Shown: positions 18,559 to 57,881 of the stretch, piece after piece
How the letters are laid out: every line of letters begins with the position of its first letter
Position numbering within the stretch: the stretch's first letter is position 1
DNA from: Candidatus Magasanikiibacteriota bacterium
GTDB lineage: Bacteria > Patescibacteriota > Patescibacteriia > Magasanikbacterales > GWA2-37-8
Assembly: GCA_026396515.1 (NCBI GenBank)
Contig: JAPLWQ010000003.1
Span: 26,204 to 90,203 of the forward strand
Direction of reading: 5' to 3'
DNA length: 64,000 bases
Translations under genes and position numbers: made by a program
The notes under the pieces: generated by a model
What the model saw: the letters and a program-made list of their open reading frames with translations, nothing else
Databases searched by the model: none
What the model was told of the DNA's origin: nothing

Positions 18559-18594
18559 TACACAGGGGGTTAAAGAAAGCAGGGGTTCTTGTTT

Positions 18595-18605
18595 TGTGGT
18601 ATAAT
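18595..18605 (+). promoter_or_regulatory. Extended -10 promoter (TGgTATAAT) for the giant surface-protein gene
   Basis: tgtggtataat located 45 nt upstream of the ATG at 18651. Confidence 0.45.
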
Positions 18606-18650
18606 ACCGTTGATGAAAAACTCATCAAATTTATTGTATTATTATATTAT

Positions 18651-24509: not shown

Positions 24510-25508
24510 ATGAATTTAGCAATAAATGGGTTCGGACGCATCGGCAGACAGGCCTTTAAAATTGCCTGCGAACACAAGGGGATTGATGTTGTTGCCATTA
24601 ATGACTTAACCGACCCGAAGACGCTGGCGCATTTATTGAAACATGACACTTCTTACCGTACATGGGACCATGATGTTTCGTTTGATGAGAAAAATATTAT
24701 TGTAGACGGCAAAAAAGTTCCGGTTTCGGCGGAAAAAGATCCGGCCGCGTTGCCGTGGAAAAAATTGTCGGTTGATGTGGTTTTGGAATGCACCGGCCGG
24801 TTTACAAAAAAAGAAGACGCTGAACTTCATATTAAAGCCGGTGCGCGCAAAGTCGTGCTTTCGGCTCCGGGCAAGGGCGGCGATATTCCAACCTATGTAC
24901 GCGGTGTGAACTGTGCTAAGGTCGGCAAGGAAACTGCCGAGATTATCAACAACGCTTCCTGTACCACCAACTGCATTGCGCCGGTGATGGCCGTGCTTGA
25001 AGAAACGTTTGGTATCAAAAAAGCAATGATGACCACCGTACACGGTTATACTGCTGACCAGAATCTGCAGGACGGCCCGCATAAGGATTTGCGCCGGGCA
25101 CGCGCGGCTGCGGAAAATATCGTGCCAACTACCACGGGCGCGGCTAAAGCCGTGGGTGAGGTGATTCCGGCTGTAAAAGGAATTTTTGATGGCTTGGCTA
25201 TCCGCGTACCGGTCCTAACTTGTTCGCTCGCAGATATTACAGCTGTGCTCAATAAGAAAGTAACAAAAGAAGAAGTGAATCAGGCGTTGATTGATGCGTC
25301 CAAAACCGCGCGATTTGAAAATGTTTTGCTTACCACCGAAGAAGAACTTGTTTCCTCTGATTTTGTCGCCAATCCATATTCTTCCATCGTTGATTTGAAA
25401 CTGACCAACGTGGTCGGTGATGATTTGGTTAAAGTGATCGCCTGGTACGACAATGAAATGGGTTACTCATACCGCTTGGTGGAAATTGCCGAGATGTTTG
25501 GAAAATAA
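24510..25508 (+). CDS. gap: Glyceraldehyde-3-phosphate dehydrogenase
   Basis: INGFGRIGR NAD motif; active-site ASCTTNC. Confidence 0.95.
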   Translation: MNLAINGFGRIGRQAFKIACEHKGIDVVAINDLTDPKTLAHLLKHDTSYRTWDHDVSFDEKNIIVDGKKVPVSAEKDPAALPWKKLSVDVVLECTGRFTKKEDAELHIKAGARKVVLSAPGKGGDIPTYVRGVNCAKVGKETAEIINNASCTTNCIAPVMAVLEETFGIKKAMMTTVHGYTADQNLQDGPHKDLRRARAAAENIVPTTTGAAKAVGEVIPAVKGIFDGLAIRVPVLTCSLADITAVLNKKVTKEEVNQALIDASKTARFENVLLTTEEELVSSDFVANPYSSIVDLKLTNVVGDDLVKVIAWYDNEMGYSYRLVEIAEMFGK

Positions 25509-33179: not shown

Positions 33180-34739
33180 ATGAAAACAAAACCAACAGTA
33201 CTCGCGATCATGGATGGTTGGGGAATAGCGCCGATAGAAAACAAAGGTAATCCGATTACGCCAAAAAATGCGCCTAATTTTTTTTCTTGGCTGAAAAAAT
33301 ACCCGAATACTGAAATTGCCGCCAGCGGAGAATCAGTTGGGCTTTTTAAGGGCGAAGATGGCAATAGTGAAGCCGGACATATGAATTTGGGAGCCGGCCG
33401 GGTGGTACAACAAGACGCCATATATATATCTGATGCGATTGAAGATGGTACATTTTTTAAAAATCCCGCCTTTCATCAGGCCTTGCATCATTTGCACAAA
33501 TATAAGACAGCCGCCCATGTGATGGGTCTGCTATCCAATCATAACAGCGCTCATTCCTGTCCGGAGCATCTTTACGCGCTTTTGGATTTTTTACGGAGTG
33601 AGGGCGTAAAAAAGATATTCTTGCATTTGTTTACCGATGGCCGCGATTCCGGCCAGCACGACGCGCCTAAACATCTAAAAAAATTGCGCGAGCACATGAA
33701 AAATGGCGAAAAGATAGCCACTATTACCGGCCGATTTTACGCCATGGATCGCGGGAAAAACTGGGATCGCCTAAAAGGAGCTTATGAAGCAATTGTTATG
33801 GGTCGAGGTGTGCGTTGTACCGCGCACAGCGCTGAGGAAGCGATTGCCCAGGCATACAATAGCGGTGAAACGGACGAGTACATTTGCCCCACTGTGATCA
33901 TGGATGACGGTCATCCGGTTACTTCAATAAAAGATAATGATGTAATTTTTTTCTTTAATCTGCGCAGTGACCGCGCGCGTGAACTGACTAAAGCGTTTGT
34001 TCAGCCGGATTTTGAGCAAATAAATGACGGCGCTTTCCATCGTGCGTTTGTGCCGAAAAATACGCGCTTTGTTGCTATGACTGATTTTGGACCGGACCTG
34101 CCGCATGTCTTAACCGCCTATCCCAGCCGGGATGTGGTTAACAGTTTGCCGCGGGTTTTGTGTCCCCACCAACAGCTATACATCGCTGAAACAGAAAAAT
34201 TCGCCCATGTGACATATTTTTTCAACGGAGGTTATGGCCGGCATTTTTGCGACGAACGCTGGATAAAAATCGCTTCGGTTGAAGTGAAAAATTATAAAGA
34301 TCGTCCGGAAATGAGCGCTAAATTAATTACTGATGTTTTAACAAAGGCAATTGAAAAAGACGGATATGAATTTGTCTGTGTTAATTTCGCCAATCCGGAC
34401 ATGGTGGCGCATAGCGGCGATATGGAAGCAACCGCTAAAGCAATTCGCACGGTTGATACCGAGATGGCGCGTCTGATAAAAGTTGTGGAAAGACTCGACG
34501 GACAAATGATAATTACTGCTGACCACGGTAATGCCGAAGAGCTGGTTAATCTGAAAACCGGCGAAGTTGATACAGAGCATTCCACCAATCCGGTTCCGTT
34601 TATTGTTGTGGGAAAAAAATATTCAAAAAGTAAATTAAAACTGCGTAAAAACGGCAAGCTCGGCGATGTGGCGCCCACGATCCTAAAAATGATGGATATT
34701 CCAAAACCAAAGGAGATGACAGGTAAAAGTATATTTTAA
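33180..34739 (+). CDS. gpmI: 2,3-bisphosphoglycerate-independent phosphoglycerate mutase, paralog 1
   Basis: ILDGWG, GNSEAGHMNLGAGR, DGRD and ADHGNAEE motifs. Confidence 0.85.
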   Translation: MKTKPTVLAIMDGWGIAPIENKGNPITPKNAPNFFSWLKKYPNTEIAASGESVGLFKGEDGNSEAGHMNLGAGRVVQQDAIYISDAIEDGTFFKNPAFHQALHHLHKYKTAAHVMGLLSNHNSAHSCPEHLYALLDFLRSEGVKKIFLHLFTDGRDSGQHDAPKHLKKLREHMKNGEKIATITGRFYAMDRGKNWDRLKGAYEAIVMGRGVRCTAHSAEEAIAQAYNSGETDEYICPTVIMDDGHPVTSIKDNDVIFFFNLRSDRARELTKAFVQPDFEQINDGAFHRAFVPKNTRFVAMTDFGPDLPHVLTAYPSRDVVNSLPRVLCPHQQLYIAETEKFAHVTYFFNGGYGRHFCDERWIKIASVEVKNYKDRPEMSAKLITDVLTKAIEKDGYEFVCVNFANPDMVAHSGDMEATAKAIRTVDTEMARLIKVVERLDGQMIITADHGNAEELVNLKTGEVDTEHSTNPVPFIVVGKKYSKSKLKLRKNGKLGDVAPTILKMMDIPKPKEMTGKSIF

Positions 34740-34741
34740 TT

Positions 34742-36334
34742 ATGCCTCACAAACATAAACCGGTTGTCTTAATCATCCTCGACGGCTGGGGAATTGCTCC
34801 GGACGGAGAAGGCAACGCCATCGCAAAAGCCAAAACACCCAATCTGGATGATTACAAAAAAAATTATCCGGTGACGACTATTACCGCGAGCGGTACCGAG
34901 GTTGGGTTGTCATTTGGCGAAGTGGGCAATTCCGAAGTCGGCCATTTAAATATTGGCGCCGGCAGGGTGTATTATCAAACACTGCCGCGTATTGACCAGG
35001 AAATATTAAATGGAAATTTTTTTGGCAATCAGGCATTTTTATCGGCTTTTGAACACGTGAAAAAAAACAAGTCAAATCTTCATCTGATGGGGCTCGTTTC
35101 CGCCGGAAAAGTGCATTCCAGCGATGAGCACCTCCATCGGCTGCTTGAGATGGCAAAGAAAAACGGCTGTTCAAAAAATGTTTATGTTCACGCCTTTCTT
35201 GACGGCAGAGATACTTTGTATAATTCAGGCAAATATTTTATCGGGCAGTTAATAAATAAAATGCAGGAGTTAAAAACCGGCAAGCTGGCGACACTGGCCG
35301 GCCGCTATTGGGCGATGGACAGAGATAACCATTGGGACAGGATTGAAAAAGTTTTTCGGGCATTAACAGTAGGCGAAGCCGATCGGATGGCACCCGACCC
35401 GTTGCAGGCGATAGATGGCGCATACGCCAACAAAAACTATGACGAAGAATTTTTACCAACGGTTATTACCGATAAAAACGGAAAGCCCACAATTACCATT
35501 AAAGATAACGACGCCGTGATATTTTTTAATTTTCGTCCGGACCGGGCGCGTGAGATGACCAAAGCGTTCGTTTTGCCGGAGTTTGATAAGTTTCCTCATC
35601 AGGCGCTTAATAATCTGTATTTTGCGACCATGGGTGAGTATGAAAAAGATTTGCCGGTATCGGCTGTGGCTTTTCCGCCGGTTGTAATTATTAATGGTTT
35701 AGCCGAAACCGTCAGCCGGGCCGGTCTGCAACAATTTCATATTGCCGAAACTGAAAAATATGCCCACATTACATTTTTTATAAATGGCACCAGAGAGGAT
35801 CCGTTTCCCGGAGAAGACAGAAAAATTATTCCTTCGCCAAAGGTATCTTCATATGATCAGCAGCCGGAGATGTCGGCTGTTCCGGTGGCAAAAGAAACGG
35901 TCAAGGCCGTGGAAAGCGGAAAGTATGATTTTATTGCCGTAAACTTCGCCAACGCAGATATGGTCGGCCACACCGGCTTGCTTGAGCCCACAATTACGGC
36001 CTGTGAAACAATTGATGAGTGTGTCGGCAGCATCGTTGACCATGTTTTGGCCCATGAGGGCGCGGTTGTCATTACGGCCGATCACGGTAATGCCGAAGAG
36101 GTCGTAAATTTGCAGACAGGGGATATAGACAAAGAACATTCAACAAATCCCGTGCCGCTGTATATTGTCAGCCGGGATTTAATGGGGCAGGCCGGCCCGA
36201 GCGGAGACCCGCCCGAGGGGGACTTGAGTTTATTGCAGCCGGTGGGTATGCTTTCCGATGTTGCTCCGACAATTTTAAAATTAATGGGTTTGGAACAACC
36301 GCCGGAGATGACCGGCTCCAGTTTAATTCAATAG
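34742..36334 (+). CDS. gpmI: 2,3-bisphosphoglycerate-independent phosphoglycerate mutase, paralog 2
   Basis: ILDGWG, GNSEVGHLNIGAGR, DGRD and ADHGNAEE motifs. Divergent from the upstream paralog. Confidence 0.85.
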   Translation: MPHKHKPVVLIILDGWGIAPDGEGNAIAKAKTPNLDDYKKNYPVTTITASGTEVGLSFGEVGNSEVGHLNIGAGRVYYQTLPRIDQEILNGNFFGNQAFLSAFEHVKKNKSNLHLMGLVSAGKVHSSDEHLHRLLEMAKKNGCSKNVYVHAFLDGRDTLYNSGKYFIGQLINKMQELKTGKLATLAGRYWAMDRDNHWDRIEKVFRALTVGEADRMAPDPLQAIDGAYANKNYDEEFLPTVITDKNGKPTITIKDNDAVIFFNFRPDRAREMTKAFVLPEFDKFPHQALNNLYFATMGEYEKDLPVSAVAFPPVVIINGLAETVSRAGLQQFHIAETEKYAHITFFINGTREDPFPGEDRKIIPSPKVSSYDQQPEMSAVPVAKETVKAVESGKYDFIAVNFANADMVGHTGLLEPTITACETIDECVGSIVDHVLAHEGAVVITADHGNAEEVVNLQTGDIDKEHSTNPVPLYIVSRDLMGQAGPSGDPPEGDLSLLQPVGMLSDVAPTILKLMGLEQPPEMTGSSLIQ

Positions 36335-49158: not shown

Positions 49159-49698
49159 TTAGAATAGACTGCGGAAATAGATAGCGCTGGTCTCTACCTG
49201 GTTGACTACGCGCGAGCCCTTCACTTGCCAGTCATCATAGATGACGGCGTTGAGTTCGGCGAGTTTTGTCTGACGTTTGGCAATGACCTTTTCGATCCCG
49301 CCGTGACATTCCAGCTCTCCGCCTGGTTTCAGGTCGCACACGGCGGCCACGTCGTTGAATTCCTTTTTTATTGGCGCCAGTTCGTAAGATATCGCCACTT
49401 GGTTGTGGCATATTGAAATTGCGAACACGATTACGAGGAGACGCAGTCCGAAGCGGATTACCTTTGGAAGGTACTTAAAGCGCCCGATGAGAAAGAGCAG
49501 TCCGATGCCGAGAATGATGTAGAGCACTATCGCATAGAACTCCTTCATCAGATCCGGCGGTGTCATGCCAAAGTCTGCTGCCCACCTGCTGGCGGTCATG
49601 TTCACGGTACTGGACAGCGCGACCATCCCAAATAAAGCGTAAATCCATTTGGTCCAGGACCCGTTGACCTGCCTTTCTTCACCTTCACGCTCTATCAT
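49159..49698 (-). CDS. Hypothetical 3-TM membrane protein with a C-terminal soluble domain; atypical GC3-rich composition; AAGGAGG RBS
   Basis: Minus-strand ORF using ctc/ctg/gtc/atc/aag/gag codons. Perfect SD (ccacaAGGAGGaaaa) 7 nt upstream of the ATG. Confidence 0.55.
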   Translation of the reverse strand: MIEREGEERQVNGSWTKWIYALFGMVALSSTVNMTASRWAADFGMTPPDLMKEFYAIVLYIILGIGLLFLIGRFKYLPKVIRFGLRLLVIVFAISICHNQVAISYELAPIKKEFNDVAAVCDLKPGGELECHGGIEKVIAKRQTKLAELNAVIYDDWQVKGSRVVNQVETSAIYFRSLF

Positions 49699-49847
49699 TT
49701 TTCCTCCTTGTGGTTTTTGTATGATAACGCCGAATTATAGCATATAAATGCGATATTGTCAAGGTTGATTGCTCGTATTTCTTATGCACAAACAAACTTT
49801 GCTACAAAGGTCAAAATTTGCTAAAATTAAGGCACAAAACATATCAT

Positions 49848-50834
49848 ATGAATATTATCGATAAAATTAAAGTTGCCGGTTTGACTGGCAGGGGAGGTGC
49901 TGAGTTTCCGACTGCCCAAAAGTGGCAGTCCGTATTAAACGCAAAAAAAGCCAACCCAAAAAAACCGGTCTATGTCGTATGCAACTTAAGCGAGGGCGAG
50001 CCGGGTGTGGACAAAGACATGCATATTGTCGAATATTTTCCCGAAGATGTGATTATTGGCATGCGGGCGGCGATTGAAACGTTTCATGCCGATAAGGCCT
50101 ATATTTTTGTTCAGAGCCATAATTTAAAAAAGGTAAAATCTCGGCTCGGCCCGTTTATCAAGCGGCTGCCCATTGTTTTCTTTCCTGAAGACCGCGGGTA
50201 CCTTGCCGGAGAAGAAACCGCCTTAATTGAAACAATTGAAGGCAATAGAACCGAACCAAGATTAAAACCTCCTTATCCGACCGAAAAAGGATTGTTTGGC
50301 TGTCCGACGCTGGTTAATAATTTAGAAACATTTTATTGTGTTTCCAGAATTTTAAGAGGTGAATATAATAGCACCAGATTTATATCTATCCGCGGAGATG
50401 CGCGGAATCCCGGAGTTTTTGAGATGCCCTGTACGGCCACCATAGAACATATTTTGAAAAAAACAAAGAATGTTCCGCGCTTCGGATATTTTGTCCAAGT
50501 GGGAGGCGGCGCGTCCGGCAACATTCTTTTGCCTGAAGAATTGGAAACAACTATTAAAGGCGCCGGTTCAATAATGATTTACGGAACCAAAAAAACAGAC
50601 GGCCGCAAACTGATGAAGAGATGGGTTGAGTTTTTTTACCGTTCAAACTGCGGAAAGTGCGCTCCCTGCCGCGAAGGAGTGTACCGTCTGCGCGAAGAGC
50701 TTGGAAAAGCGAAGCCAAACTGGTTAATATTGCGGGCAGTGTTGGAAACGATGCGCGATTCAAGTTTTTGCCCGCTGGGTAAAAGCGTTCATGAACCGAT
50801 GATGAGCTTTATGGAAAAAATCGGTGTTAAATAA
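49848..50834 (+). CDS. Compact NuoF-like (51-kDa) flavoprotein / HydB-like subunit (329 aa)
   Basis: GLTGRGGAEFPTAQKW, VVCNLSEGEPGVDKD, AGEETALIETIEGNRTEPRLKPPYP and C-terminal CGKCAPCREG...FCPLG [4Fe-4S]. Confidence 0.7.
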   Translation: MNIIDKIKVAGLTGRGGAEFPTAQKWQSVLNAKKANPKKPVYVVCNLSEGEPGVDKDMHIVEYFPEDVIIGMRAAIETFHADKAYIFVQSHNLKKVKSRLGPFIKRLPIVFFPEDRGYLAGEETALIETIEGNRTEPRLKPPYPTEKGLFGCPTLVNNLETFYCVSRILRGEYNSTRFISIRGDARNPGVFEMPCTATIEHILKKTKNVPRFGYFVQVGGGASGNILLPEELETTIKGAGSIMIYGTKKTDGRKLMKRWVEFFYRSNCGKCAPCREGVYRLREELGKAKPNWLILRAVLETMRDSSFCPLGKSVHEPMMSFMEKIGVK

Positions 50835-50841
50835 TTTTATT

Positions 50842-51360
50842 ATGCCAATGAGTGAACAAGTGGAAGCGGTGCCAAAGGAAAAGACAATTTACGTAGTGGG
50901 AGTATTTTTGTTTTTGCTCGGTGGTGTAATGCTCGCTCCTCTGTTTCCTAATCAATTTATTTCCGGTCCGATTGTAAACGCCATTTTGCTGATCGTTACC
51001 GTCATATTGGGTTTGCGCAGCGGAATACTTATGTCTTTTTTGCCGAGTGTAATGGCATTGGTCGGCGGCCTTTTGCCGGCAATATTTATCCCTTTCATTC
51101 CATTTATCATGGCCGGAAATATTATTTTTGTCACTATATTTCATTACTTGCGCCAGAAAAATTTTTGGCTCGGCGCCGGAGCGGGTAGCGTGGTAAAATT
51201 TATTTTTCTTTATATATCCAGCAAAATAATGTTTGATTATTTTACTGGTCAGACGCTTGCCGGGGCGTTTGCACTGATGATGTCTTGGAATCAACTGTAT
51301 TCTGCGGCAGTCGGCAGTTTGATCGCCTTTTTATTTCTAAAAACAATTAAACGTATTTAG
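50842..51360 (+). CDS. Integral membrane protein (5-6 TM), possibly ECF-type S-component-like, inside the hydrogenase operon
   Basis: Highly hydrophobic 172-aa ORF between the nuoF-like gene and hydA; no catalytic motif. Confidence 0.35.
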   Translation: MPMSEQVEAVPKEKTIYVVGVFLFLLGGVMLAPLFPNQFISGPIVNAILLIVTVILGLRSGILMSFLPSVMALVGGLLPAIFIPFIPFIMAGNIIFVTIFHYLRQKNFWLGAGAGSVVKFIFLYISSKIMFDYFTGQTLAGAFALMMSWNQLYSAAVGSLIAFLFLKTIKRI

Positions 51361-51364
51361 TGTT

Positions 51365-53164
51365 ATGCCGAAAAAATTTCAAATAAAGATTGACGGGAAA
51401 AATATCGACGCCATGGAAGGTGAAACAATTTTGCAGGCGGCTTTGAGGTCTAATATTGATATTCCGCATCTCTGCCAGCACCCCGACCTGTCTGTACGCG
51501 CCAATTGCCGGATGTGTATGGTGAGCGTGAAGGGAATACGCTCGCTTGTCACCGCTTGTTCCACTAATGTGGCGCCGGGAATGGAAATAATTTCGAAATC
51601 GCCGGCAATAAAACGATCGCGCAAATTTAATTTGGAAATGATTTTCGGCGAGCATGTGGAAGATTGCCCTGTTTGCGTTTGGAATTCACGCTGTGATTTG
51701 CTTAAATACCGCAAAGAGCTTAATTCAAAAATGCTACGGTTTGAAGACCGAAAAGTTAGGCGTCCGATCTACGAGTTCGGTCCGATTGTTTTTGATCAGA
51801 CGAAATGTATTGATTGCCGAAATTGTGTGGAAGTTTGCCCTGTGGAATATTTGGAAGTGAGCGGTAAAGGTTCAGAAATTGGCATTGAGCCGTCGGCGAA
51901 TAGAAAGAAGGATTGTATTGCCTGCGGCCAGTGTATAGTACATTGCCCGGCTGGAGCGATAAAATCCGTCGGCGAATATTCGGCGATTGATAAGTTGGAA
52001 AAATTATTTAAACAAAAAGATAAGATTGTAGTAGTGCAGTTCGCCCCCTCGATCAGAGTCTCGATCGGTGAAGAGCTTGGCCTGCCTTATGGCGCCGCTG
52101 CCACCAATCAGCTCTCTGCCGGTTTGCGCGCGCTGGGATTCAATTATGTTTTTGACACTTCTGCTGCTGCTGATTTTACCACTATTGAAGAGGCGTCCGA
52201 AGCGGTCGAGAGAATAAAAAAAGGAGAGAATCTGCCGATATTTACATCCTGTTGTCCTTCCTGGGTGATGTTTATGGAATTTAATCGTCCGGATTATGTG
52301 AAACATTTAAGCACGGCGCGTTCGCCCGAGATTATGCTTGGCGGACTGATTAAAACCTATTGGGCGGAAAAAGAAAAAATTGATCCGAAACAGATAATTT
52401 CCGTTTCAGTAATGCCTTGCACCTCCAAAAAGTTTGAAATTGAAAGGCCGGAATTTAAGATTAATGGCTTGAAGCCGGTGGATATTGTAATAACCACACG
52501 CGAGCTGTCCCGCTGGCTCTTAAATAAAAAAATTGATCTGAAAAAAATAAAGCCGTCCATGGCTGACAATCCGTTTGGCGATCCGTCCGGCGCCGGTGTC
52601 ATCTACGGCGCCTCCGGCGGTGTCATGGAATCGGCTTTGAGAACCGCTTATTGGATCTTAACCGGAGAGAATTTGAAAGACTACAACTTGTTTAAAAATG
52701 TGCGCGGTTTGGACGGAATTAAAAGAGCGGTGATTAAACTGCCGCGTCCGCTTAAAACCGCAAAAGGCGTGCGCACTGAACTTCGGGTAGTTGTGACCAA
52801 TATGATAAAAAACGCGAGGTTAATTCTTGATGAGTTGAAGAAAGATCCTTCGGCCTATGATTTTGTGGAAGTGATGACTTGCCCGGGCGGATGTATTGGC
52901 GGGGGAGGCCAATCAATGCCGGTAGATAATTCCATACGCGAACGTAGGGCTTCCTCCCTTTACGTGATTGATGGTGAGAAAAAAATTCGGTTGGCGCACG
53001 AGAATCCGGCTGTGCTTAAGGCTTATGACGATTATTTCAAGGATGTTAATAAGAAGCACCTGGTTTTCCATACAAAATTTTATCCGAAAAATAGGACTAA
53101 AATAATTACCCGGCGCCGGGTAAAAGCTGATGGGGCCCTACAGAGCGATAAATATAAAAAATAA
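51365..53164 (+). CDS. hydA: [FeFe]-hydrogenase catalytic subunit HydA
   Basis: N-terminal [2Fe-2S] and His-ligated cluster; two CxxCxxCxxxCP ferredoxin motifs. H-cluster motifs TSCCPSW (L1), MPCTSKKFE (L2) and EVMTCPGGCIGGGGQ (L3). Confidence 0.9.
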   Translation: MPKKFQIKIDGKNIDAMEGETILQAALRSNIDIPHLCQHPDLSVRANCRMCMVSVKGIRSLVTACSTNVAPGMEIISKSPAIKRSRKFNLEMIFGEHVEDCPVCVWNSRCDLLKYRKELNSKMLRFEDRKVRRPIYEFGPIVFDQTKCIDCRNCVEVCPVEYLEVSGKGSEIGIEPSANRKKDCIACGQCIVHCPAGAIKSVGEYSAIDKLEKLFKQKDKIVVVQFAPSIRVSIGEELGLPYGAAATNQLSAGLRALGFNYVFDTSAAADFTTIEEASEAVERIKKGENLPIFTSCCPSWVMFMEFNRPDYVKHLSTARSPEIMLGGLIKTYWAEKEKIDPKQIISVSVMPCTSKKFEIERPEFKINGLKPVDIVITTRELSRWLLNKKIDLKKIKPSMADNPFGDPSGAGVIYGASGGVMESALRTAYWILTGENLKDYNLFKNVRGLDGIKRAVIKLPRPLKTAKGVRTELRVVVTNMIKNARLILDELKKDPSAYDFVEVMTCPGGCIGGGGQSMPVDNSIRERRASSLYVIDGEKKIRLAHENPAVLKAYDDYFKDVNKKHLVFHTKFYPKNRTKIITRRRVKADGALQSDKYKK

Positions 53165-53174
53165 TAGATACTTT

Positions 53175-54863
53175 ATGCCCATGGAAAAGAAATCACCAAT
53201 TTATACCATATTGGTCGGCGGCGCAGCCGGAGACGGCGCTAAAGAGGCGGCTATAAATTTCGGCCGGCTGGCGGCTAAACACGGTTATGAATTTTTTTTG
53301 TCAGTGGAATATCCGTCGCTTATCCGGGGCGGGCATAATTATGCGCGTGTAAGCATATCCTCCAAAAAAGTTTTTTGTGATTCAGCCGAGCTCGATGCGG
53401 TGGTGGCTCTTAATGATGAAACAGTTGAAAAACATCGGTCTGAAATAAAAAAAGGCGGAATGATTTTTTTAGACAGTGCTGAGGATGCCGGGAAGAAAGG
53501 GTTGATAAATATTCCGGCGAGCGCCTGGGTTAAAGAAGAAAATTTGCCGCGTCTTTTTAGGGCCAGCGCACTGCTTGGCGCCGTCTGCCGATATTATAAT
53601 TTTGATATTGTTGAGCTGAACAATATTTTTAAAGAAATTTTCGGTGAAAAAGCCGGGCCGAATATCTTGCTGGCCAAAAAGGGCTATGAGTTTTTGCAGA
53701 GTAAAAATGTTCAGCAAGTATTTCTGCCGCGCCGTAAGTGCGCCGGGAAAATGGTGCTTGACGGGAACGAAGCTTTTTCGGAAGGATTAGTTAAAGCAGG
53801 CCTGAAGAATTACTTTGGCTACCCCATGACGCCCTCTTCTTCCATATTGCATTATCTGGCAAAGAAGGCGAAAGAATATAAATTGAAAGTGGTTCAGCCG
53901 GAAAATGAAATTAGCGTTATAAACATGGCACTTGGCGCTTCATATGCCGGCAGTCGGACTGCGATAGCATCCACCGGCGGCGGTTTCGCTCTTATGCTTG
54001 AGGCGATGGCTTTTGCCGGAGTAGCCGAGATTCCAATCGTCGTGGTCGATGCCCAGCGCGCTTCAACCTCAACCGGCGTACCGACACGGACCGGACAGGG
54101 CGATCTTGATTTCGTCCGTCATTTACCGGGAGAGTATCCGAGAATTGTGCTGGCGCCCGGAGATGCCGACGAGGCGTATCTTATAGCCGGCGCAGCCATG
54201 AATCTGGCGTGGAAATTTCAATCGCCGGCCGTTGTGTTGCTTGACAAGCATTTATCCGAAAGTGTTTCCACTGTTGACTTGCAGACAAATAAAGTTAAAA
54301 TTGAAAACCCAAAGATAGCCGGCAACGGTGCCGCTTACCGCCGCTACGCATTTTCGCCGGATGGCGTGTCGGCGCTGGCGTTTCCCGGTGAGAAAGGCAA
54401 AGTAGTAAAAATATCCAGTTATGAGCACGACGAAGATGGATATATTTGTGATGGCGTGGAAAACGCCAAAAAAATGTGCGAAAAGCGTTTTGCCAAGACA
54501 AAAGGCATTGTCGTGGAAAGAAAAAAATATGATTCAATAAAAATTTACGGTGATAAGAAAGCGAAGAATGCCGTAATTTTTTGGGGTTCGGTAAAAGGCC
54601 CGATGCTTGAGGCGATGCGCGCGGTCAAGCGGCCATATAAAGCGGTCCAAATTGTCTGGTTGGAACCGTTTGATACTGATCGTTTTTTGAAAGAAATAAA
54701 AGGTGTAAAAAAATTGGTGATAGCGGAAAATAATTTTACCGGACAGCTGGCTAAGCTAATACGGGAGAAAACCGGTGTAGAAATAAAAAATAAGATATTG
54801 AAATATGATTCTTTGCCTTTTGACGTTCGGGAATTGGCAAAAAAATTAGATAAGATATTTTAA
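53175..54863 (+). CDS. 2-oxoacid:ferredoxin oxidoreductase, fused gamma-alpha subunit
   Basis: N-terminal POR-gamma-like domain (ILVGGAAGDGAKEA...IRGGH), then an alpha domain (GYPMTPSS). Confidence 0.75.
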   Translation: MPMEKKSPIYTILVGGAAGDGAKEAAINFGRLAAKHGYEFFLSVEYPSLIRGGHNYARVSISSKKVFCDSAELDAVVALNDETVEKHRSEIKKGGMIFLDSAEDAGKKGLINIPASAWVKEENLPRLFRASALLGAVCRYYNFDIVELNNIFKEIFGEKAGPNILLAKKGYEFLQSKNVQQVFLPRRKCAGKMVLDGNEAFSEGLVKAGLKNYFGYPMTPSSSILHYLAKKAKEYKLKVVQPENEISVINMALGASYAGSRTAIASTGGGFALMLEAMAFAGVAEIPIVVVDAQRASTSTGVPTRTGQGDLDFVRHLPGEYPRIVLAPGDADEAYLIAGAAMNLAWKFQSPAVVLLDKHLSESVSTVDLQTNKVKIENPKIAGNGAAYRRYAFSPDGVSALAFPGEKGKVVKISSYEHDEDGYICDGVENAKKMCEKRFAKTKGIVVERKKYDSIKIYGDKKAKNAVIFWGSVKGPMLEAMRAVKRPYKAVQIVWLEPFDTDRFLKEIKGVKKLVIAENNFTGQLAKLIREKTGVEIKNKILKYDSLPFDVRELAKKLDKIF

Positions 54864-54867
54864 ATAT

Positions 54868-55638
54868 ATGATTGACTTTTCCACAAAAGCAAAAAATACA
54901 TGGTGTCCCGGTTGCACTAATTTTTCAATTTTAGCCGCTTTTAAAAATGCGCTCAATGATCTGGCGGGGGAGGGTTACTCAAAGGATAATTTTGTCATGG
55001 TTGCCGGCATCGGTTGCCATGGAAAAATACCGGATTATGTGGATATTAACAGTTTTATGTCTTTGCATGGCCGTGATGTTGCTTCGGCCGAGGGCATTAA
55101 AGCTGGTAACCCCAATCTGACAGTGGTTTCTTTTGCCGGAGATGGCGACGCCTATGCCGAAGGCATGGAGCATTTGGTGCATGCGGCTAAGCGTAATGCC
55201 AATATCACTTTGTTCGTGCATAATAATCAGGTTTTTGGTCTAACTACCGGACAGGTGACCCCAACCAGCCCTAAGGGCTATCGCGGCCGTTCTACGCCAT
55301 TTGGCAGCCCTGAGGAGCCGCTTAACCCTCTCGCAGTACTGCTCGCGTCCGGCGCCACCTTTATCGCCCGTGCTTGGGCGTTGGACCCGGATAAGCTGAA
55401 AGAAATAATGAAACGCGCGGTAAAGCATAAGGGGTTTTCCATTGTGGATATAATCCAGCCATGTATCACTTTCAGCGATACCAGGGCGCATTTTAAGGAT
55501 AAAGTTTTTTATCTTGACCAAAATTGGCCGACAAATGATTGGAGCAAGGCGATGCAAAAAATTCGTGAGAATTCCGACAAAGTTCCGCTGGGAGTTATCT
55601 ATGAAATTAATAAACCGGTATTTGAAGAACAGCTATGA
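54868..55638 (+). CDS. 2-oxoacid:ferredoxin oxidoreductase beta subunit (TPP-binding)
   Basis: WCPGCTNF; GDGDAYAEG TPP motif. Confidence 0.8.
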   Translation: MIDFSTKAKNTWCPGCTNFSILAAFKNALNDLAGEGYSKDNFVMVAGIGCHGKIPDYVDINSFMSLHGRDVASAEGIKAGNPNLTVVSFAGDGDAYAEGMEHLVHAAKRNANITLFVHNNQVFGLTTGQVTPTSPKGYRGRSTPFGSPEEPLNPLAVLLASGATFIARAWALDPDKLKEIMKRAVKHKGFSIVDIIQPCITFSDTRAHFKDKVFYLDQNWPTNDWSKAMQKIRENSDKVPLGVIYEINKPVFEEQL

Positions 55639-55779
55639 CCCCGTAGAGAAATTTTGAATGATTATTATTAAATTTTTCAGTAAAAATATGAAAAAGGAAA
55701 TATCGTCTCAACTGACTTTTTTTATGAAACAAAAACATAATAATCGAATAAAAATTTATTCAAAATTCTTCTACGGGGT

Positions 55780-57822
55780 ATGAACTTGAAAACTCTTTTC
55801 AATCCGCGGACAGTGGCCGTAATCGGTGCGGCTGATGATCCGAAGAAGCTCGGATACGCGCTGGTATACAATTTGTTGCAGAACAAAAAAAGAAAAGTTA
55901 TACCGGTCAATCCTTCTTTTAAGAAAGTCCTCGGTCTTCGTTGTTTTTCTTCGCTTTCAAAAGTTAAAGACAAAATTGACCTGGTTATTATTGCGGTAAA
56001 GCCGGAAATAGTGCCCTTGGTTTTAAAAGATTGTGGTGAAAAAAAAATTCCTCACGCCATAATTATTACGGCCGGTTTTAAAGAAATTGGCGGAGCGGGT
56101 GCAGAGCGGGAAAAGGAACTCAAAGCGATAGCCAAAAAATATAAAATTAATATTGTCGGTCCGAATTGTCTGGGCGTATTGGACACGGAGAGCAATTTAA
56201 ATGGCACTTTTGGCAGTGAAACAATGCCGAAAAAAGGACCGGTAGCTTTTATTTCGCAATCGGGCGCGGTTGGTACGGCTATGCTTGATTGGGCAATGAA
56301 AAATAATGTCGGGTTTTCCAAATTTGTTTCCATTGGCAATGAGGCCGGTGCGACAGAAAATGATTTTTTGGAATATCTTGGCAAGGACCGCTGTACTTCG
56401 GCAATTTTAATGTATCTTGAAGGTATAACTGATGGAAAAAGATTCATGCGCCAGGTGAAAAAAATATCCGCAAAAAAACCGGTGGTTATTTTAAAAGCCG
56501 GATTGTCCGAGCGCGGCTTAAAAGCAGTGGCGTCTCATACCGGTTCGCTGGCGCCGTCTCGTGAGATATTTCGTACTGCCTGTCGTCAAAGCGGCGCCAT
56601 TCTGGTTGATTCGCTTGGCGCCATGTTTAACCTGGCGAAATTATTGAATGGTGGTTTGTATAGTGCCCCGAATGAATGGGTAATACTGACAAACGGAGGT
56701 GGTCCGTCGATTGTTACCGCCGACTTAATTGAATCCACTCCAAATTTGAACTTATTCGCGCCTGATGAAGCTTTAAAAAATAAATTGAGTAAAGTATTGC
56801 CGGCCACGGCGGCGCTGAACAATCCGGTGGATATTATCGGTGACGCCTTAAGTGATCGCTATGAAGCTGCGTTAAAAATTCTTACTGCAGATAAGAAGGT
56901 GAAGGGGATAATGGTAATTCTTACGCCTCAAAAAATGACGCGGATTAAGGAAACCGCTGTCATTGTGGCAAAGTACGCTTCAAAAATACCAATTATTCCG
57001 CTTTTTATCGGCGGAGCGGCAGCAACCGAGGCGGAGAAGGTTTTTACTAAGCATAATCTAGTCAACTTTATCGATCCGTACGCTGCGGTTGAAGCAGTGT
57101 CCTCTTTGGCTTCGCCAATAAAAAAGAAAGAAGATGCTGATAATCGGATACCGTCAGAAGACGCAGGGCCGATGATGCGCCAAATGCGTTTTAATGAGTG
57201 TGTGGCCATGTTGTACCAGCAGGGTTTAAAAATATCAGGCGATTTTATTGCAAAAAAAGAAAATTTGCGAAGATTTTCGGAAAAGAACAAATTTCCTTGG
57301 GCCATGAAAGTGATGTCAGAGCAGATTGTGCATAAAACAGATGTGGGCGGTGTAAGAGTTAATATAAATAGCTTGGCTGAGGCGGAAAAGGCTTGGAAAG
57401 AAATTTATACGGCAGTGACAAAAAAAATGCCCGGAGTAAAAATTGAGGGTTTTATTGTACAGCCAATGTCATCAGGCAGGGAAGTTATTATTGGTATGAA
57501 GCGCGACCCGTCATTTGGTCCGGTAATTGTTTTTGGCTTGGGTGGCGTTTTTGTGGAAACGCTTAAGGACGCGTCTATGCGCATTTCACCGATAAATGAT
57601 GCTGATGCAATGGCCATGATTTATGAAATTAAAGCGGCGGCAATTTTACGGGGCGTGCGGGGCGAGCCGTCGGTTGATATATCCGCTTTGGCCAAGATTA
57701 TTGTGGCTGTTTCAAAAATGGCGGAGAAACACAAAAATATTAAGGAAATTGATTTTAACCCGGTGATGGCAAGACCGGACGGAGCCGATATTGTAGATGT
57801 GCGAATTATGGTTGAACGCTGA
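55780..57822 (+). CDS. Acetyl-CoA synthetase (ADP-forming), fused alpha-beta
   Basis: TVAVIGAADDPKKLGYALVYNL CoA-binding N-terminus; succinyl-CoA-synthetase-like flavodoxin and ATP-grasp domains; 680 aa. Confidence 0.8.
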   Translation: MNLKTLFNPRTVAVIGAADDPKKLGYALVYNLLQNKKRKVIPVNPSFKKVLGLRCFSSLSKVKDKIDLVIIAVKPEIVPLVLKDCGEKKIPHAIIITAGFKEIGGAGAEREKELKAIAKKYKINIVGPNCLGVLDTESNLNGTFGSETMPKKGPVAFISQSGAVGTAMLDWAMKNNVGFSKFVSIGNEAGATENDFLEYLGKDRCTSAILMYLEGITDGKRFMRQVKKISAKKPVVILKAGLSERGLKAVASHTGSLAPSREIFRTACRQSGAILVDSLGAMFNLAKLLNGGLYSAPNEWVILTNGGGPSIVTADLIESTPNLNLFAPDEALKNKLSKVLPATAALNNPVDIIGDALSDRYEAALKILTADKKVKGIMVILTPQKMTRIKETAVIVAKYASKIPIIPLFIGGAAATEAEKVFTKHNLVNFIDPYAAVEAVSSLASPIKKKEDADNRIPSEDAGPMMRQMRFNECVAMLYQQGLKISGDFIAKKENLRRFSEKNKFPWAMKVMSEQIVHKTDVGGVRVNINSLAEAEKAWKEIYTAVTKKMPGVKIEGFIVQPMSSGREVIIGMKRDPSFGPVIVFGLGGVFVETLKDASMRISPINDADAMAMIYEIKAAAILRGVRGEPSVDISALAKIIVAVSKMAEKHKNIKEIDFNPVMARPDGADIVDVRIMVER

Positions 57823-57856
57823 TTCTTGCCATTTATTTTCGCTTATGTTAGAATAA

Positions 57857-57881
57857 TTAAGCCCTTTTTGGGCTTAATTTT
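57857..57881 (+). terminator. Rho-independent terminator after the ACD gene
   Basis: ttaagccc-ttttt-gggcttaa followed by tttt. Confidence 0.75.

Follow-up and report, generated by a model that had tools for sequence, protein, structure and literature searches.

The six-gene operon analysed here is predicted to serve the final part of fermentation in a CPR bacterium, where electrons are disposed of and ATP is gained. On balance, and with moderate confidence, its features favour a two-subunit, NuoE-less, non-bifurcating NADH-dependent hydrogenase, encoded beside a 2-oxoacid:ferredoxin oxidoreductase (OFOR) and an ACD-type acyl-CoA synthetase, with a membrane protein that would act as a small-molecule S component. 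The trio of HydA, stripped-down NuoF-like protein and S-component-like membrane protein recurs across relatives.

Operon layout and ATP-yielding genes

The whole stretch of DNA analysed (64 kb, hereafter the window) came from a MAG of Candidatus Magasanikbacteria (CPR/Patescibacteria), a groundwater bacterium with a tiny genome. ORF calling placed six co-oriented genes on the + strand at 49848-57822, separated by gaps of 7, 4, 10, 4 and 141 bp and followed 73 bp further on by secA, bearing out the compact arrangement described in an earlier sequence-only reading. Based on Pfam and NCBIfam, they encoded, in order, a NuoF-like protein, a membrane protein, HydA, OFOR gamma-alpha, OFOR beta and an acyl-CoA synthetase. 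A second Magasanikbacteria contig possessed the complete block with secA (its NuoF being 58% identical), and both the six-gene block and the NuoF-like/HydA pair are more than chance arrangements. Consensus scans alone gave two weak candidates for regulatory sites: a promoter-like site (TTGCTA-17-TAAAAT with TG; 49799..49827, + strand), located in the 149-bp divergent intergenic region (49698 to 49848) directly 5' of the NuoF-like gene, and a terminator-like hairpin 3' of the synthetase gene (57855..57879, + strand), whose 10-bp stem leads into a T-rich tail.

The OFOR alpha subunit (53175..54863, + strand) carried an N-terminal gamma domain, as in the two-subunit type, matched Pfam POR and POR_N, and scored 523.1 bits against TIGR03710 (cutoff 482.75), with Sulfolobus-type OFOR (5b48/5b46) as closest solved relative. 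Its start is ambiguous (53130, 53175 or 53181). The beta subunit (54868..55638, + strand) scored 281.8 bits against TIGR02177 (cutoff 261.9), matched 5b46_B at 2e-58, and possessed a TPP site and a single [4Fe-4S] motif (CPGC at 13, GIGC at 47, QPC at 197). No OFOR delta/ferredoxin subunit was encoded, and no ferredoxin gene was found within the 64-kb window. The last gene (55780..57822, + strand) encoded a 680-aa fused alpha-beta NDP(ADP)-forming acyl-CoA synthetase of the ACD type, with CoA_binding_2, Succ_CoA_lig, Ligase_CoA_2 and ATP-grasp_5 domains and an SHTGS loop at 252. Its solved relatives were ADP-forming acyl-CoA ligases (8wzu) and ACD 4xyl, and its score against TIGR02717 (500.4 bits) fell under the acetate-specific cutoff of 567.15. 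The fermentative module proposed earlier was upheld: the OFOR would convert pyruvate or another 2-oxoacid into acyl-CoA while reducing ferredoxin, the synthetase would convert acyl-CoA and ADP into the acid and ATP by substrate-level phosphorylation, and the hydrogenase would serve as electron sink.

The AT-rich 141-bp spacer between the OFOR beta and synthetase genes (55639..55779) may be a structured RNA or a small element that was inserted here. It was bounded by 21-nt inverted repeats (55639-55659 and 55758-55778; 2 mismatches, chance expectation 0.01), and its RNA fold reached -37.2 kcal/mol (z = -6.0). It had no Rfam match, and the homologous spacer in one related metagenome locus (L001) measured only 23 bp.

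The compact NuoF-like protein and HydA

The first gene (49848..50834, + strand) encoded a 328-aa HydB-like diaphorase matching PF01512 (Complex1_51K; 1.6e-30) and PF10589 (NADH_4Fe-4S; 1.7e-13), and comprising an FMN/NADH domain and an SLBB region that is trimmed, together with an N3 [4Fe-4S] motif of four Cys. The motifs NLSEGEPGVDKD, GYLAGEE, PRLKPPYP, NNLET, CGKCAPCREG and SFCPLG were all present, while a NuoE-like domain, an N-terminal domain and C-terminal ferredoxin domains were missing. Its closest solved relatives were NuoF, HoxF and HydB (E ~1e-40), and the NCBI entry 'hypothetical protein NTW66_02515' (Candidatus Magasanikbacteria) was 100% identical. Deletion mapping by alignment showed that ~38 N-terminal residues and four loops of canonical NuoF were missing. 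The protein had diverged strongly: it scored 124-167 bits against canonical NuoF proteins and 193.8 bits against the NCBIfam NuoF equivalog model, far under its cutoff of 558.65.

All of the 120 best matches measured 320-375 aa, and those named were Patescibacteria. Within the family, the cofactor and cluster residues F20, K25, E49-G50-E51-P52, Y118, G121-E122-E123, N157-N158, E160-T161, C268, C271, C274 and C308 were invariant, and the compact NuoE-less form is a conserved trait of a large Patescibacteria family, not a one-off. Since the longest possible ORF was 338 aa and the divergent upstream gene ended at 49698, there was no room for a missed NuoF N-terminus or an upstream nuoE. A phmmer search of the 64-kb window and 21 related loci (E up to 10) detected no NuoE-like ORF, whereas the same query matched at 56/66 canonical NuoF loci. 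The compact protein with FMN/NADH motifs and a C-terminal 4Fe-4S cluster, and the missing NuoE/HydC partner, had both been read correctly from the sequence, and the extra Fe-S domains of HydB were missing as well. No characterised NuoF-type enzyme devoid of a NuoE-like subunit or domain was found in the literature, which counts against a NuoE-less enzyme.

HydA (51365..53164, + strand; 599 aa) was assigned to the M3-type [FeFe] hydrogenase catalytic subunits by Pfam (Fe_hyd_lg_C, 2.2e-83; Fer2_4; NADH-G_4Fe-4S_3; Fe_hyd_SSU at 523-575), NCBIfam (TIGR02512, 430.9 bits, cutoff 405.95), PDB matches and motifs. The motif scan recovered all three H-cluster motifs previously noted (TSCCPSW at 294, MPCTSKKFE at 350, EVMTCPGGCIGGGGQ at 502), together with Cys signatures of a [2Fe-2S] cluster, a His-ligated [4Fe-4S] cluster and a pair of ferredoxin-type [4Fe-4S] clusters; judged by these motifs, HydA is a complete M3 enzyme. 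It scored 631 bits against NF040763 ('NADH-dependent, group A6') versus 454 bits against the model of the clostridial ferredoxin type, and 456, 440 and 357 bits against T. kivui HydA1, A. woodii HydA and CpI, respectively, and is by score nearer to NADH-linked multimeric HydA than to the ferredoxin-only clostridial CpI. The 90-aa basic C-terminal extension earlier ascribed to HydA was rejected: residues 523-575 form an ordinary small-subunit-like domain (Fe_hyd_SSU), alignments reach residue 576 with T. kivui and A. woodii HydA and 572 with CpI, and only the last ~23 residues, the basic tail RTKIITRRRVKADGALQSDKYKK, are extra.

HydA lay directly 3' of the compact NuoF in 24/24 distinct related contexts (17/17 GTDB loci, four metagenome loci, L001 to L004, and three reached from the membrane-protein side), and the frequent overlap of start and stop codons suggests that translation is coupled. 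In view of this strict adjacency, a solitary, ferredoxin-dependent HydA of the CpI kind, with the NuoF-like protein serving separately, e.g. as an NAD(P)H:acceptor diaphorase or an NADH:ferredoxin link, is very unlikely. CpI and other M3 HydA enzymes show activity as monomers, and the low scores of the NuoF-like protein against canonical NuoF and the equivalog model would suit such a separation, but HydA possessed the NuoG-like N-terminal [2Fe-2S] domain that is the N3 acceptor in complex I and HydABC, and a lone NuoF core would have no other obvious acceptor site.

Neither the window nor the 21 related loci contained a HydE/G-like radical SAM gene, the sole matches being an AmmeMemoRadiSam enzyme and RlmN, and no reports of HydEFG in Patescibacteria were found in the literature. 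In archaea, most genomes with [FeFe] hydrogenases are without maturases, and some of the enzymes are nevertheless active (PMC11216029). A hydrogenase that is inactive or unconventionally matured because the genome has no HydE, HydF and HydG is, even so, highly doubtful, as the search covered ~64 kb of a 394-kb contig. Maturase genes hydEFG are usually unlinked to hydA. Moreover, all catalytic motifs are kept under selection across the large HydA/NuoF-like family, which argues for an active enzyme.

In HydABC, ferredoxin binding and bifurcation are assigned to HydC and the extra Fe-S domains of HydB. Here, HydC was missing, as were two HydB domains, the N-terminal [2Fe-2S] and the C-terminal 2x[4Fe-4S], and a minimal electron-confurcating hydrogenase, co-oxidising NADH and OFOR-reduced ferredoxin to H2 without these parts, appears unlikely. 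By the criteria of Losey et al. 2020 (PMC7311640) for separating bifurcating from non-bifurcating NuoF-like subunits, the protein showed Lys in PGVxK (for Met), Tyr in GYLxGEE (for Phe), no GGPSG and no extra Fe-S domains; in our own control set of 64 canonical loci, bifurcating and non-bifurcating signatures co-varied perfectly, splitting the classes cleanly. Position '232' of that scheme was Val, whereas bifurcating enzymes have A/E there and non-bifurcating ones T/S; save for this position, the residues fit the non-bifurcating pattern. Confurcation would agree with a GGGASG sequence resembling the GGPSG of bifurcating enzymes, with HydA having its closest solved relatives in bifurcating enzymes (HydA1 of T. 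kivui and A. woodii), and with database schemes such as HydDB, which sort group A by NuoF-like neighbour and would give A3 (PMC8421398). The ferredoxin-reducing OFOR in the same operon also points that way, but it adjoins the NuoF-like/HydA pair only in Magasanikbacteria-type loci, whereas the pair itself is universal. The match to the non-bifurcating residues therefore makes 'NADH-linked, non-bifurcating' a sharper description than the earlier 'NAD(P)H/Fd-linked'. As the Asp of the canonical N-A-D-E motif is replaced by Ser, Thr or Ala in the compact family, the protein may handle flavin or nucleotide differently, and use of NADPH is conceivable.

The six-TM membrane protein

The gene between those for the NuoF-like protein and HydA (50842..51360, + strand), expected to encode a 5-6-TM protein, gave an AF2 model with six TM helices (pLDDT 88.8, 36-sequence alignment) and, according to this model, an ECF-transporter S-component fold. 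Its best structural match was RibU (5kbw, 3p5n) at only 10-13% identity, with 24.6 bits against PF12822 (cutoff 30.7) and no NCBIfam match in the profile search. NCBI labels it 'iron hydrogenase'. Co-occurrence with hydA in relatives, put forward earlier as a check, was found: the gene was linked to the NuoF-like/HydA pair across Patescibacteria and one Dehalococcoidales MAG despite varying gene order, and occurred at 0/63 canonical NuoF loci (L022-L084), but about half of the compact-NuoF loci had no copy within 10 kb.

This linkage, the basic tail at the end of HydA and the different, 250-aa membrane protein lying between the two genes in some relatives would be compatible with an anchor for the NuoF-like/HydA pair in a membrane-bound, possibly ion-coupled hydrogenase. 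Such a role is improbable, given that the protein had no redox-cofactor motifs, has the fold of substrate-capture subunits and is missing from so many loci. Likewise, of the 1576 representatives of its family, none of the 150 best was fused to HydA or NuoF (longest 261 aa). Its invariant polar intramembrane residues (Q37, N45, N92, K118, Q150) were shared by clostridial homologues with no hydrogenase neighbour, which points towards a ligand pocket and away from a docking surface. The 'membrane-associated' hydrogenase of the sequence-only reading thus found no direct support; binding or import of a small molecule is a likelier role for the protein than anchoring of the enzyme, and it is probably not an electron-transfer subunit. 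As an S component, its leading candidate ligand would be a cofactor precursor, e.g. riboflavin for FMN. No riboswitch, including the FMN riboswitch, was found upstream of any homologue, and the riboflavin idea is weakened by one Firmicutes contig that carried both a family member and a RibU-type gene.

Predicted electron flow and comparison with known systems

In the favoured NADH-dependent, non-bifurcating enzyme, HydA and the compact NuoF-like protein would form a heterodimer, as conservation and residue signatures indicate. Hydride from NADH would reach the FMN and then the N3-type [4Fe-4S] of the NuoF-like protein, from which electrons would pass through the N1b-like [2Fe-2S] and [4Fe-4S] chain of HydA to the H-cluster, releasing H2. 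The enzyme would re-oxidise glycolytic NADH from GAPDH, whose gene was co-oriented and ≤1.3 kb upstream of the compact NuoF gene in 10/17 relatives (0/66 canonical loci). This reaction would run forward only at low H2 pressure, near H2 consumers or a host, and reduced ferredoxin from the OFOR would probably feed the exposed clusters of HydA independently, as in CpI.

The OFOR resembles the Sulfolobus type (5b46/5b48) in domain architecture and in cluster and TPP motifs, with models above curated cutoffs, and the synthetase shares the domain architecture and catalytic His loop of 4xyl and 8wzu, differing from the acetate-specific ACD model in score (500 versus 567 bits). The membrane protein resembles ECF S components such as RibU in its size (~170 aa) and conserved polar residues inside the membrane; unlike them, it is below the Pfam cutoff, without an FMN riboswitch and genetically tied to a hydrogenase. 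It is probably of the 'hyd6TM' type noted beside group A [FeFe] hydrogenases of ultra-small archaeal symbionts (PMC11216029, 2024), likened here by description as a small multi-helix membrane protein, although the present one is from Patescibacteria.

As in complex I NuoF/Nqo1 (e.g. Aquifex NuoEF, 6q9c), the NuoF-like protein has the FMN/NADH fold, the ligand residues and the four-Cys N3 motif in a C-terminal helical bundle, but it is without the NuoE partner and N-terminal segment, its loops are trimmed, the N-A-D-E Asp is Ser/Thr, and its partner is a hydrogenase instead of NuoG. HydABC (Thermotoga maritima; Thermoanaerobacter kivui, 8a6t; Acetobacterium woodii, 7q4v; HydDB group A3) shares the HydA layout, provides the closest solved relative of HydA (1.6e-135) and pairs it with a NuoF core; in contrast, the present partner measures 328 aa versus ~600 aa for HydB, and HydC, the additional Fe-S domains and the bifurcating signature residues are absent. 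Both characterised enzymes of the non-bifurcating type (PMC7311640) keep a NuoE-like module, as the separate subunit Hyd1C in S. wolfei and fused to the 66-kDa HydB in S. aciditrophicus, whereas the present operon has none, its NuoF core is shortened by the N-terminal segment and four loops, and Val occupies position 232. They nevertheless resemble it in combining an M3 HydA with a NuoF-like flavoprotein devoid of the bifurcating-HydB Fe-S domains, in the Lys and Tyr at the signature positions without GGPSG, and in a predicted role in venting NADH as H2 when H2 pressure is low.

Gene content of the fermentative block

The six co-oriented genes recognised by the sequence-only reading were recovered as plus-strand ORFs at the same positions and received Pfam and NCBIfam assignments. 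They encoded, in order, a compact NuoF-like protein (49848-50834, 328 aa; Complex1_51K and NADH_4Fe-4S in Pfam), a membrane protein (50842-51360, about 172 aa; weak PF12822 match), the [FeFe] hydrogenase HydA (51365-53164, 599 aa), a fused gamma-alpha subunit (about 53175-54863, about 560 aa) and a beta subunit (54868-55638, 256 aa) of a 2-oxoacid:ferredoxin oxidoreductase (OFOR), and an NDP-forming acyl-CoA synthetase with fused alpha and beta parts (55780-57822, 680 aa). The gaps between them measured 7, 4, 10, 4 and 141 bp. Other genes in the window belonged to lower glycolysis or encoded aminoacyl-tRNA synthetases, RF1, SecA/SecDF and ribosomal proteins.

HydA possessed all three H-cluster motifs (L1, L2 and L3), as had been claimed, and N-terminal motifs for a [2Fe-2S], a His-[4Fe-4S] and two [4Fe-4S] clusters. 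It reached 430.9 bits against TIGR02512 (cutoff 405.95) and aligned over its full length with both HydA1 and CpI, the clostridial ferredoxin-type hydrogenase, scoring higher against NADH-linked multimeric HydA than against the ferredoxin-only CpI. These are the sequence features of a group A [FeFe] hydrogenase with M3 architecture, for which catalytic activity is predicted. The 90-aa C-terminal extension previously ascribed to HydA did not hold up: residues 523-575 form the Pfam domain Fe_hyd_SSU, which to our knowledge is carried by all M3 enzymes. Alignments ended at residue 576 against HydA1 of T. kivui and A. woodii and at residue 572 against CpI, and the true surplus is a basic tail of 23 residues. 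This was the one error in a reading whose observations were otherwise largely right and whose interpretation found partial support.

The OFOR genes scored above the cutoffs of their families (gamma-alpha fusion, TIGR03710, 523.1 bits, cutoff 482.75; beta, TIGR02177, 281.8 bits, cutoff 261.9), and TPP, [4Fe-4S] and Cys motifs were located in the beta subunit. Their closest solved relatives are Sulfolobus-type two-subunit enzymes (5b46, 5b48), and by sequence they encode a two-subunit 2-oxoacid:ferredoxin oxidoreductase. The acyl-CoA synthetase had the five-subdomain NDP-forming architecture in Pfam, with the catalytic His loop SHTGS at 252. Its solved relatives were ADP-forming acyl-CoA ligases and ADP-forming acetyl-CoA synthetase (ACD), the best being hydroxy-acid CoA ligases, and it scored 500.4 bits against TIGR02717, the acetate/acetyl-CoA equivalog (cutoff 567.15). 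Fermentation by OFOR, ACD and hydrogenase is well known in CPR. No ferredoxin gene was found in the window, where CxxCxxCxxxCP motifs occurred inside HydA only.

An AT-rich spacer of 141 bp (55639-55779) separated the OFOR beta and ACD genes, with 21-nt inverted repeats at its ends (2 mismatches) and a fold of -37.2 kcal/mol (z = -6.0). It had no Rfam match and no second copy in the window; since its counterpart in the related metagenome contig L001 is only 23 bp long, it has the look of inserted DNA or of a structured element specific to the lineage. Elsewhere, tandem paralogues of 519 and 530 aa followed enolase (33180-34739 and 34742-36334) and, by their N-terminal motifs, look like cofactor-independent phosphoglycerate mutases. 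There were also two very large ORFs (17-4447, 1476 aa; 18594-23162, 1522 aa), the second of which begins with a signal/TM segment, contains long repeats rich in Thr/Ser and looks like a surface protein, as would be typical of episymbiotic CPR.

The compact NuoF-like protein and the nearby absence of NuoE

The NuoF-like protein was 100% identical to the NCBI entry 'hypothetical protein NTW66_02515' of Candidatus Magasanikbacteria (CPR/Patescibacteria), and its best 120 database matches were all 320-375 aa long, the named ones being Patescibacteria. A mis-called start was rejected as the source of its short length: even the longest possible ORF, which is adjacent to a divergent gene, encodes no more than 338 aa, which excludes a fragment produced by mis-calling, and other members of the family have a similar length. 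Only PF01512 and PF10589 were detected, both above their cutoffs; at 193.8 bits against TIGR01959 (cutoff 558.65), the protein falls outside the NuoF (complex I 51-kDa subunit) equivalog. Alignment with canonical NuoF, HydB and HoxF showed that the compact NuoF lacks about 38 N-terminal residues, four internal loops (approximately 16, 11, 11 and 9 residues) and any NuoE-like or ferredoxin-like extension. The FMN- and NADH-contacting residues of Nqo1/NuoF and the four N3 Cys were invariant across the family and located in the window protein. The Asp of the N-A-D-E motif was systematically replaced by Ser, Thr or Ala (Ser in the window protein); apart from this residue, the motifs of a NuoF-type FMN/NADH/N3 module are complete. 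An origin of compact NuoF from the S. wolfei-like type of a Dehalococcoidales MAG locus (L086) was not favoured by bit scores (123, against 141-167 for other classes).

No NuoE-like ORF was found in the window or in 21 related loci (phmmer, E up to 10), whereas the same query, as a positive control, matched 56 of 66 canonical NuoF loci, bearing out the earlier statement that a NuoE/HydC partner gene is lacking. What NuoE and its N1a cluster do in complex-I-type flavoproteins is still a matter of debate, and the NuoF-like/HydA pair, if it works as proposed, would offer a naturally occurring test of NuoF in the absence of NuoE. [quoted passage not shown] 2020, PMC7311640), and the group A3 clusters so far described from DPANN keep one as well (Greening et al. 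2024, PMC11216029; PMC8421398); the NuoE-less state is therefore what distinguishes the compact family. Orphan nuoF, nuoG and nuoA, with nuoE unmentioned, were reported in a study of CPR MAGs (PMC6146748), which hints independently at the same state.

Bifurcating beta subunits are marked by a PGAFM NADH loop, GAFVCGEE near FMN, GGPSG in the SLBB region and extra Fe-S domains, and non-bifurcating ones by a T/S-x-K/S/A NADH loop (Thr/Ser at position 232, Lys/Ser/Ala at 234), a Tyr near FMN, and the lack of both GGPSG and extra Fe-S domains (PMC7311640). In 64 canonical control loci, these signatures co-varied perfectly and cleanly separated the two classes. The compact family had PGVxK (K56 invariant), GYLxGEE (Y118 invariant) and GGGASG and was devoid of extra Fe-S domains; position 232 was mostly Val, otherwise Ile or Met, and Val fits neither class. 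Three of the four features of the family agree with the non-bifurcating pattern. The minimal character of the NAD(P)H/Fd-linked hydrogenase suggested earlier stands, NuoE being absent nearby, and its type can be sharpened by the signatures to a non-bifurcating, NADH-type one. We infer that the pair is a NuoE-less, non-bifurcating NADH-type hydrogenase, with predicted H2 production from NADH. Under schemes in which every group A hydrogenase linked to NuoF is called 'bifurcating A3', a whole Patescibacteria clade would then be mislabelled, and the inferred energetics would change with the label, as H2 release driven by NADH is possible only at very low H2 and hence implies dependence on H2-consuming partners.

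The membrane protein and hydrogenase maturation

The protein encoded between the NuoF-like gene and hydA was modelled with AF2 from a 36-sequence alignment (pLDDT 88.8, six helices), a single-sequence model having been unusable (pLDDT 65). The model has the six-helix fold of ECF-transporter S components. Against PF12822 the protein scored 24.6 bits (cutoff 30.7), and many close homologues had a precomputed PF12822 match. It is named 'iron hydrogenase' at NCBI, like its homologues, and sometimes 'riboflavin transporter' at JGI; the NCBI name appears to reflect the neighbouring genes and not a hydrogenase domain.

Co-occurrence with hydA in relatives, an association that the sequence-only reading had left to be checked, was found in 7 of the 17 compact loci listed from GTDB and in none of 63 canonical NuoF loci, fractions that come from a small sample (at least 17 compact-family loci among 63 canonical ones). 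The gene lies between the NuoF-like gene and hydA in Magasanikbacteria and downstream of hydA elsewhere, and three contigs found from homologues of the membrane protein had the order compact NuoF, HydA, membrane protein. In L086 (3532-7543), NuoE (155 aa), a NuoF of 408 aa with non-bifurcating signatures, HydA and the same S-component-like protein were encoded together, so the link of the membrane protein to this hydrogenase type reaches beyond CPR and to a NuoE-containing version. Clostridial homologues (33-40% identity) had the invariant intramembrane polar residues Q37, N45, N92, K118 and Q150 in common with it; they had no hydrogenase neighbour, and one contig also carried a RibU-type gene. 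Anchoring of the NuoF-like/HydA pair to the membrane by this protein is considered improbable.

This small, uncharacterised, hydrogenase-linked S-component-like family numbers about 1000 representatives at 50% identity (989 of 1.84 billion at E up to 1e-10). The longest of the best 150 members listed had 261 aa, so none of these is a HydA or NuoF fusion. S components of group II are as a rule encoded apart from their ECF module, and no ECF-module gene occurred among the neighbouring genes in the related loci examined. Upstream of the homologues, no Rfam riboswitch reached the gathering score in 11 loci and the window, and the upstream region of the Clostridium oryzae homologue had no Rfam match at E up to 1. 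The membrane protein is best read as an S component with predicted ligand binding; the leading, if weak, candidate for its role is to supply the FMN subunit with flavin. A 'hyd6TM' protein adjoining archaeal group A hydrogenases, listed as uncharacterised (PMC11216029), probably belongs to the same type.

A hydE, hydF or hydG gene was found neither in the window nor within 10 kb in related loci. Screening of ORFs of at least 250 aa for CxxxCxxC (regex, window and 21 loci) gave four matches; the two of radical-SAM size were rejected as HydE/HydG, being an AmmeMemoRadiSam enzyme and RlmN. The literature searched held nothing relevant on HydEFG or HydF in CPR/Patescibacteria. A part for the membrane protein in HydEFG-independent cofactor supply or assembly in ultra-small symbionts (CPR, DPANN), for which linkage would be the basis, appears very improbable; within that reading the protein could import a host-made precursor, and such a route, if true, would explain active [FeFe] hydrogenases in genomes without maturases. 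The family also touches on the question of how active hydrogenases arise in maturase-poor symbionts.

A TM1266-like protein of 88 aa, ACT/NikR-C-like, adjoined HydA in three loci (L006:3740-4006, L016:13554-13820, L017:4561-4827) and in two loci was followed immediately by the S-component-like gene. It matched PF21699, 'iron-only hydrogenase system regulator' (34.5 bits, cutoff 27). In Thermotoga, the TM1266 family accompanies maturase genes; none was found near these three loci.

Conserved core, proposed working and known systems

HydA was encoded directly downstream of the NuoF-like gene in all 24 compact contexts listed (17 GTDB loci, four metagenome loci and three reached via the membrane protein), frequently with overlapping start and stop codons. 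OFOR and ACD adjoined the pair only in Magasanikbacteria-type loci among those listed (the window, L001/L002 and L018). The NuoF-like protein and HydA therefore make up the conserved core, and the six-gene block is a lineage-specific extension of it. A co-oriented GAPDH gene lay at most 1.3 kb upstream of the NuoF-like gene in 10 of the 17 GTDB loci listed (L010-L017, L020, L021; seven within about 300 bp), compared with 0 of 66 canonical NuoF loci. The GAPDH gene of the window (24510-25508) is 24 kb from the pair, inside a block of glycolysis genes.

Compact NuoF/HydA genes also occurred under unexpected labels (L012, CAZKAU010000003.1; L009, L011, L017, L018 and L021): one MAG was labelled Woesearchaeota and several 'uncultured Gammaproteobacteria', and one homologue Methylococcales. 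These labels would be explained either by CPR contigs that were mis-binned or mislabelled or by CPR-DPANN transfer. In Falkowbacteria-type loci, a different, unannotated membrane protein of about 250 aa occupied the NuoF-like/HydA interval (L014:4518-5354, L016:11025-11759, L017:1949-2707, L020:11056-11829, L021:5571-6344; split in L015:11046-11785). It had no Pfam or NCBIfam match, and in L015 and L017 it was present together with the S-component-like protein.

Beyond the observed gene identities, motifs, conserved linkage and nearby absence of NuoE, a working model can be proposed. The NuoF-like protein and HydA would form a heterodimer in which electrons pass from NADH through FMN and N3 to the [2Fe-2S] cluster of HydA, its [4Fe-4S] chain and the H-cluster. 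NADH derived from GAPDH would be re-oxidised without bifurcation, and the tight GAPDH link would give CPR fermentation a simple redox loop. Such re-oxidation would be thermodynamically viable only at low H2; 2.2-40.2 Pa H2 was measured for non-bifurcating NADH-dependent enzymes (PMC7311640). Ferredoxin reduced by OFOR would donate to HydA separately, and ACD would yield ATP. No natural NADH:H+ oxidoreductase of the [FeFe] type would be smaller than a pair working in this way. The conserved NuoE-less minimal diaphorase, the association of this diaphorase with GAPDH and the S-component-like protein linked to the hydrogenase appear to be new, none having been singled out for bacteria in the open literature searched.

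Among known systems, the bifurcating HydABC (group A3) has a HydB of about 600 aa, in which the NuoF core is extended by an N-terminal thioredoxin-like [2Fe-2S] and a C-terminal 2x[4Fe-4S] domain, whereas the window protein has 328 aa and neither extension. HydABC also has HydC, a NuoE-like [2Fe-2S] protein, which has no counterpart in the window or its 21 relatives, and its signature residues (PGAFM, GAFVCGEE and GGPSG) are absent from the compact family. With the Hyd1ABC/HydAB type, the compact family has the beta-subunit domains, the Tyr and the Lys in common, but not Thr/Ser at position 232 or the NuoE-like module.
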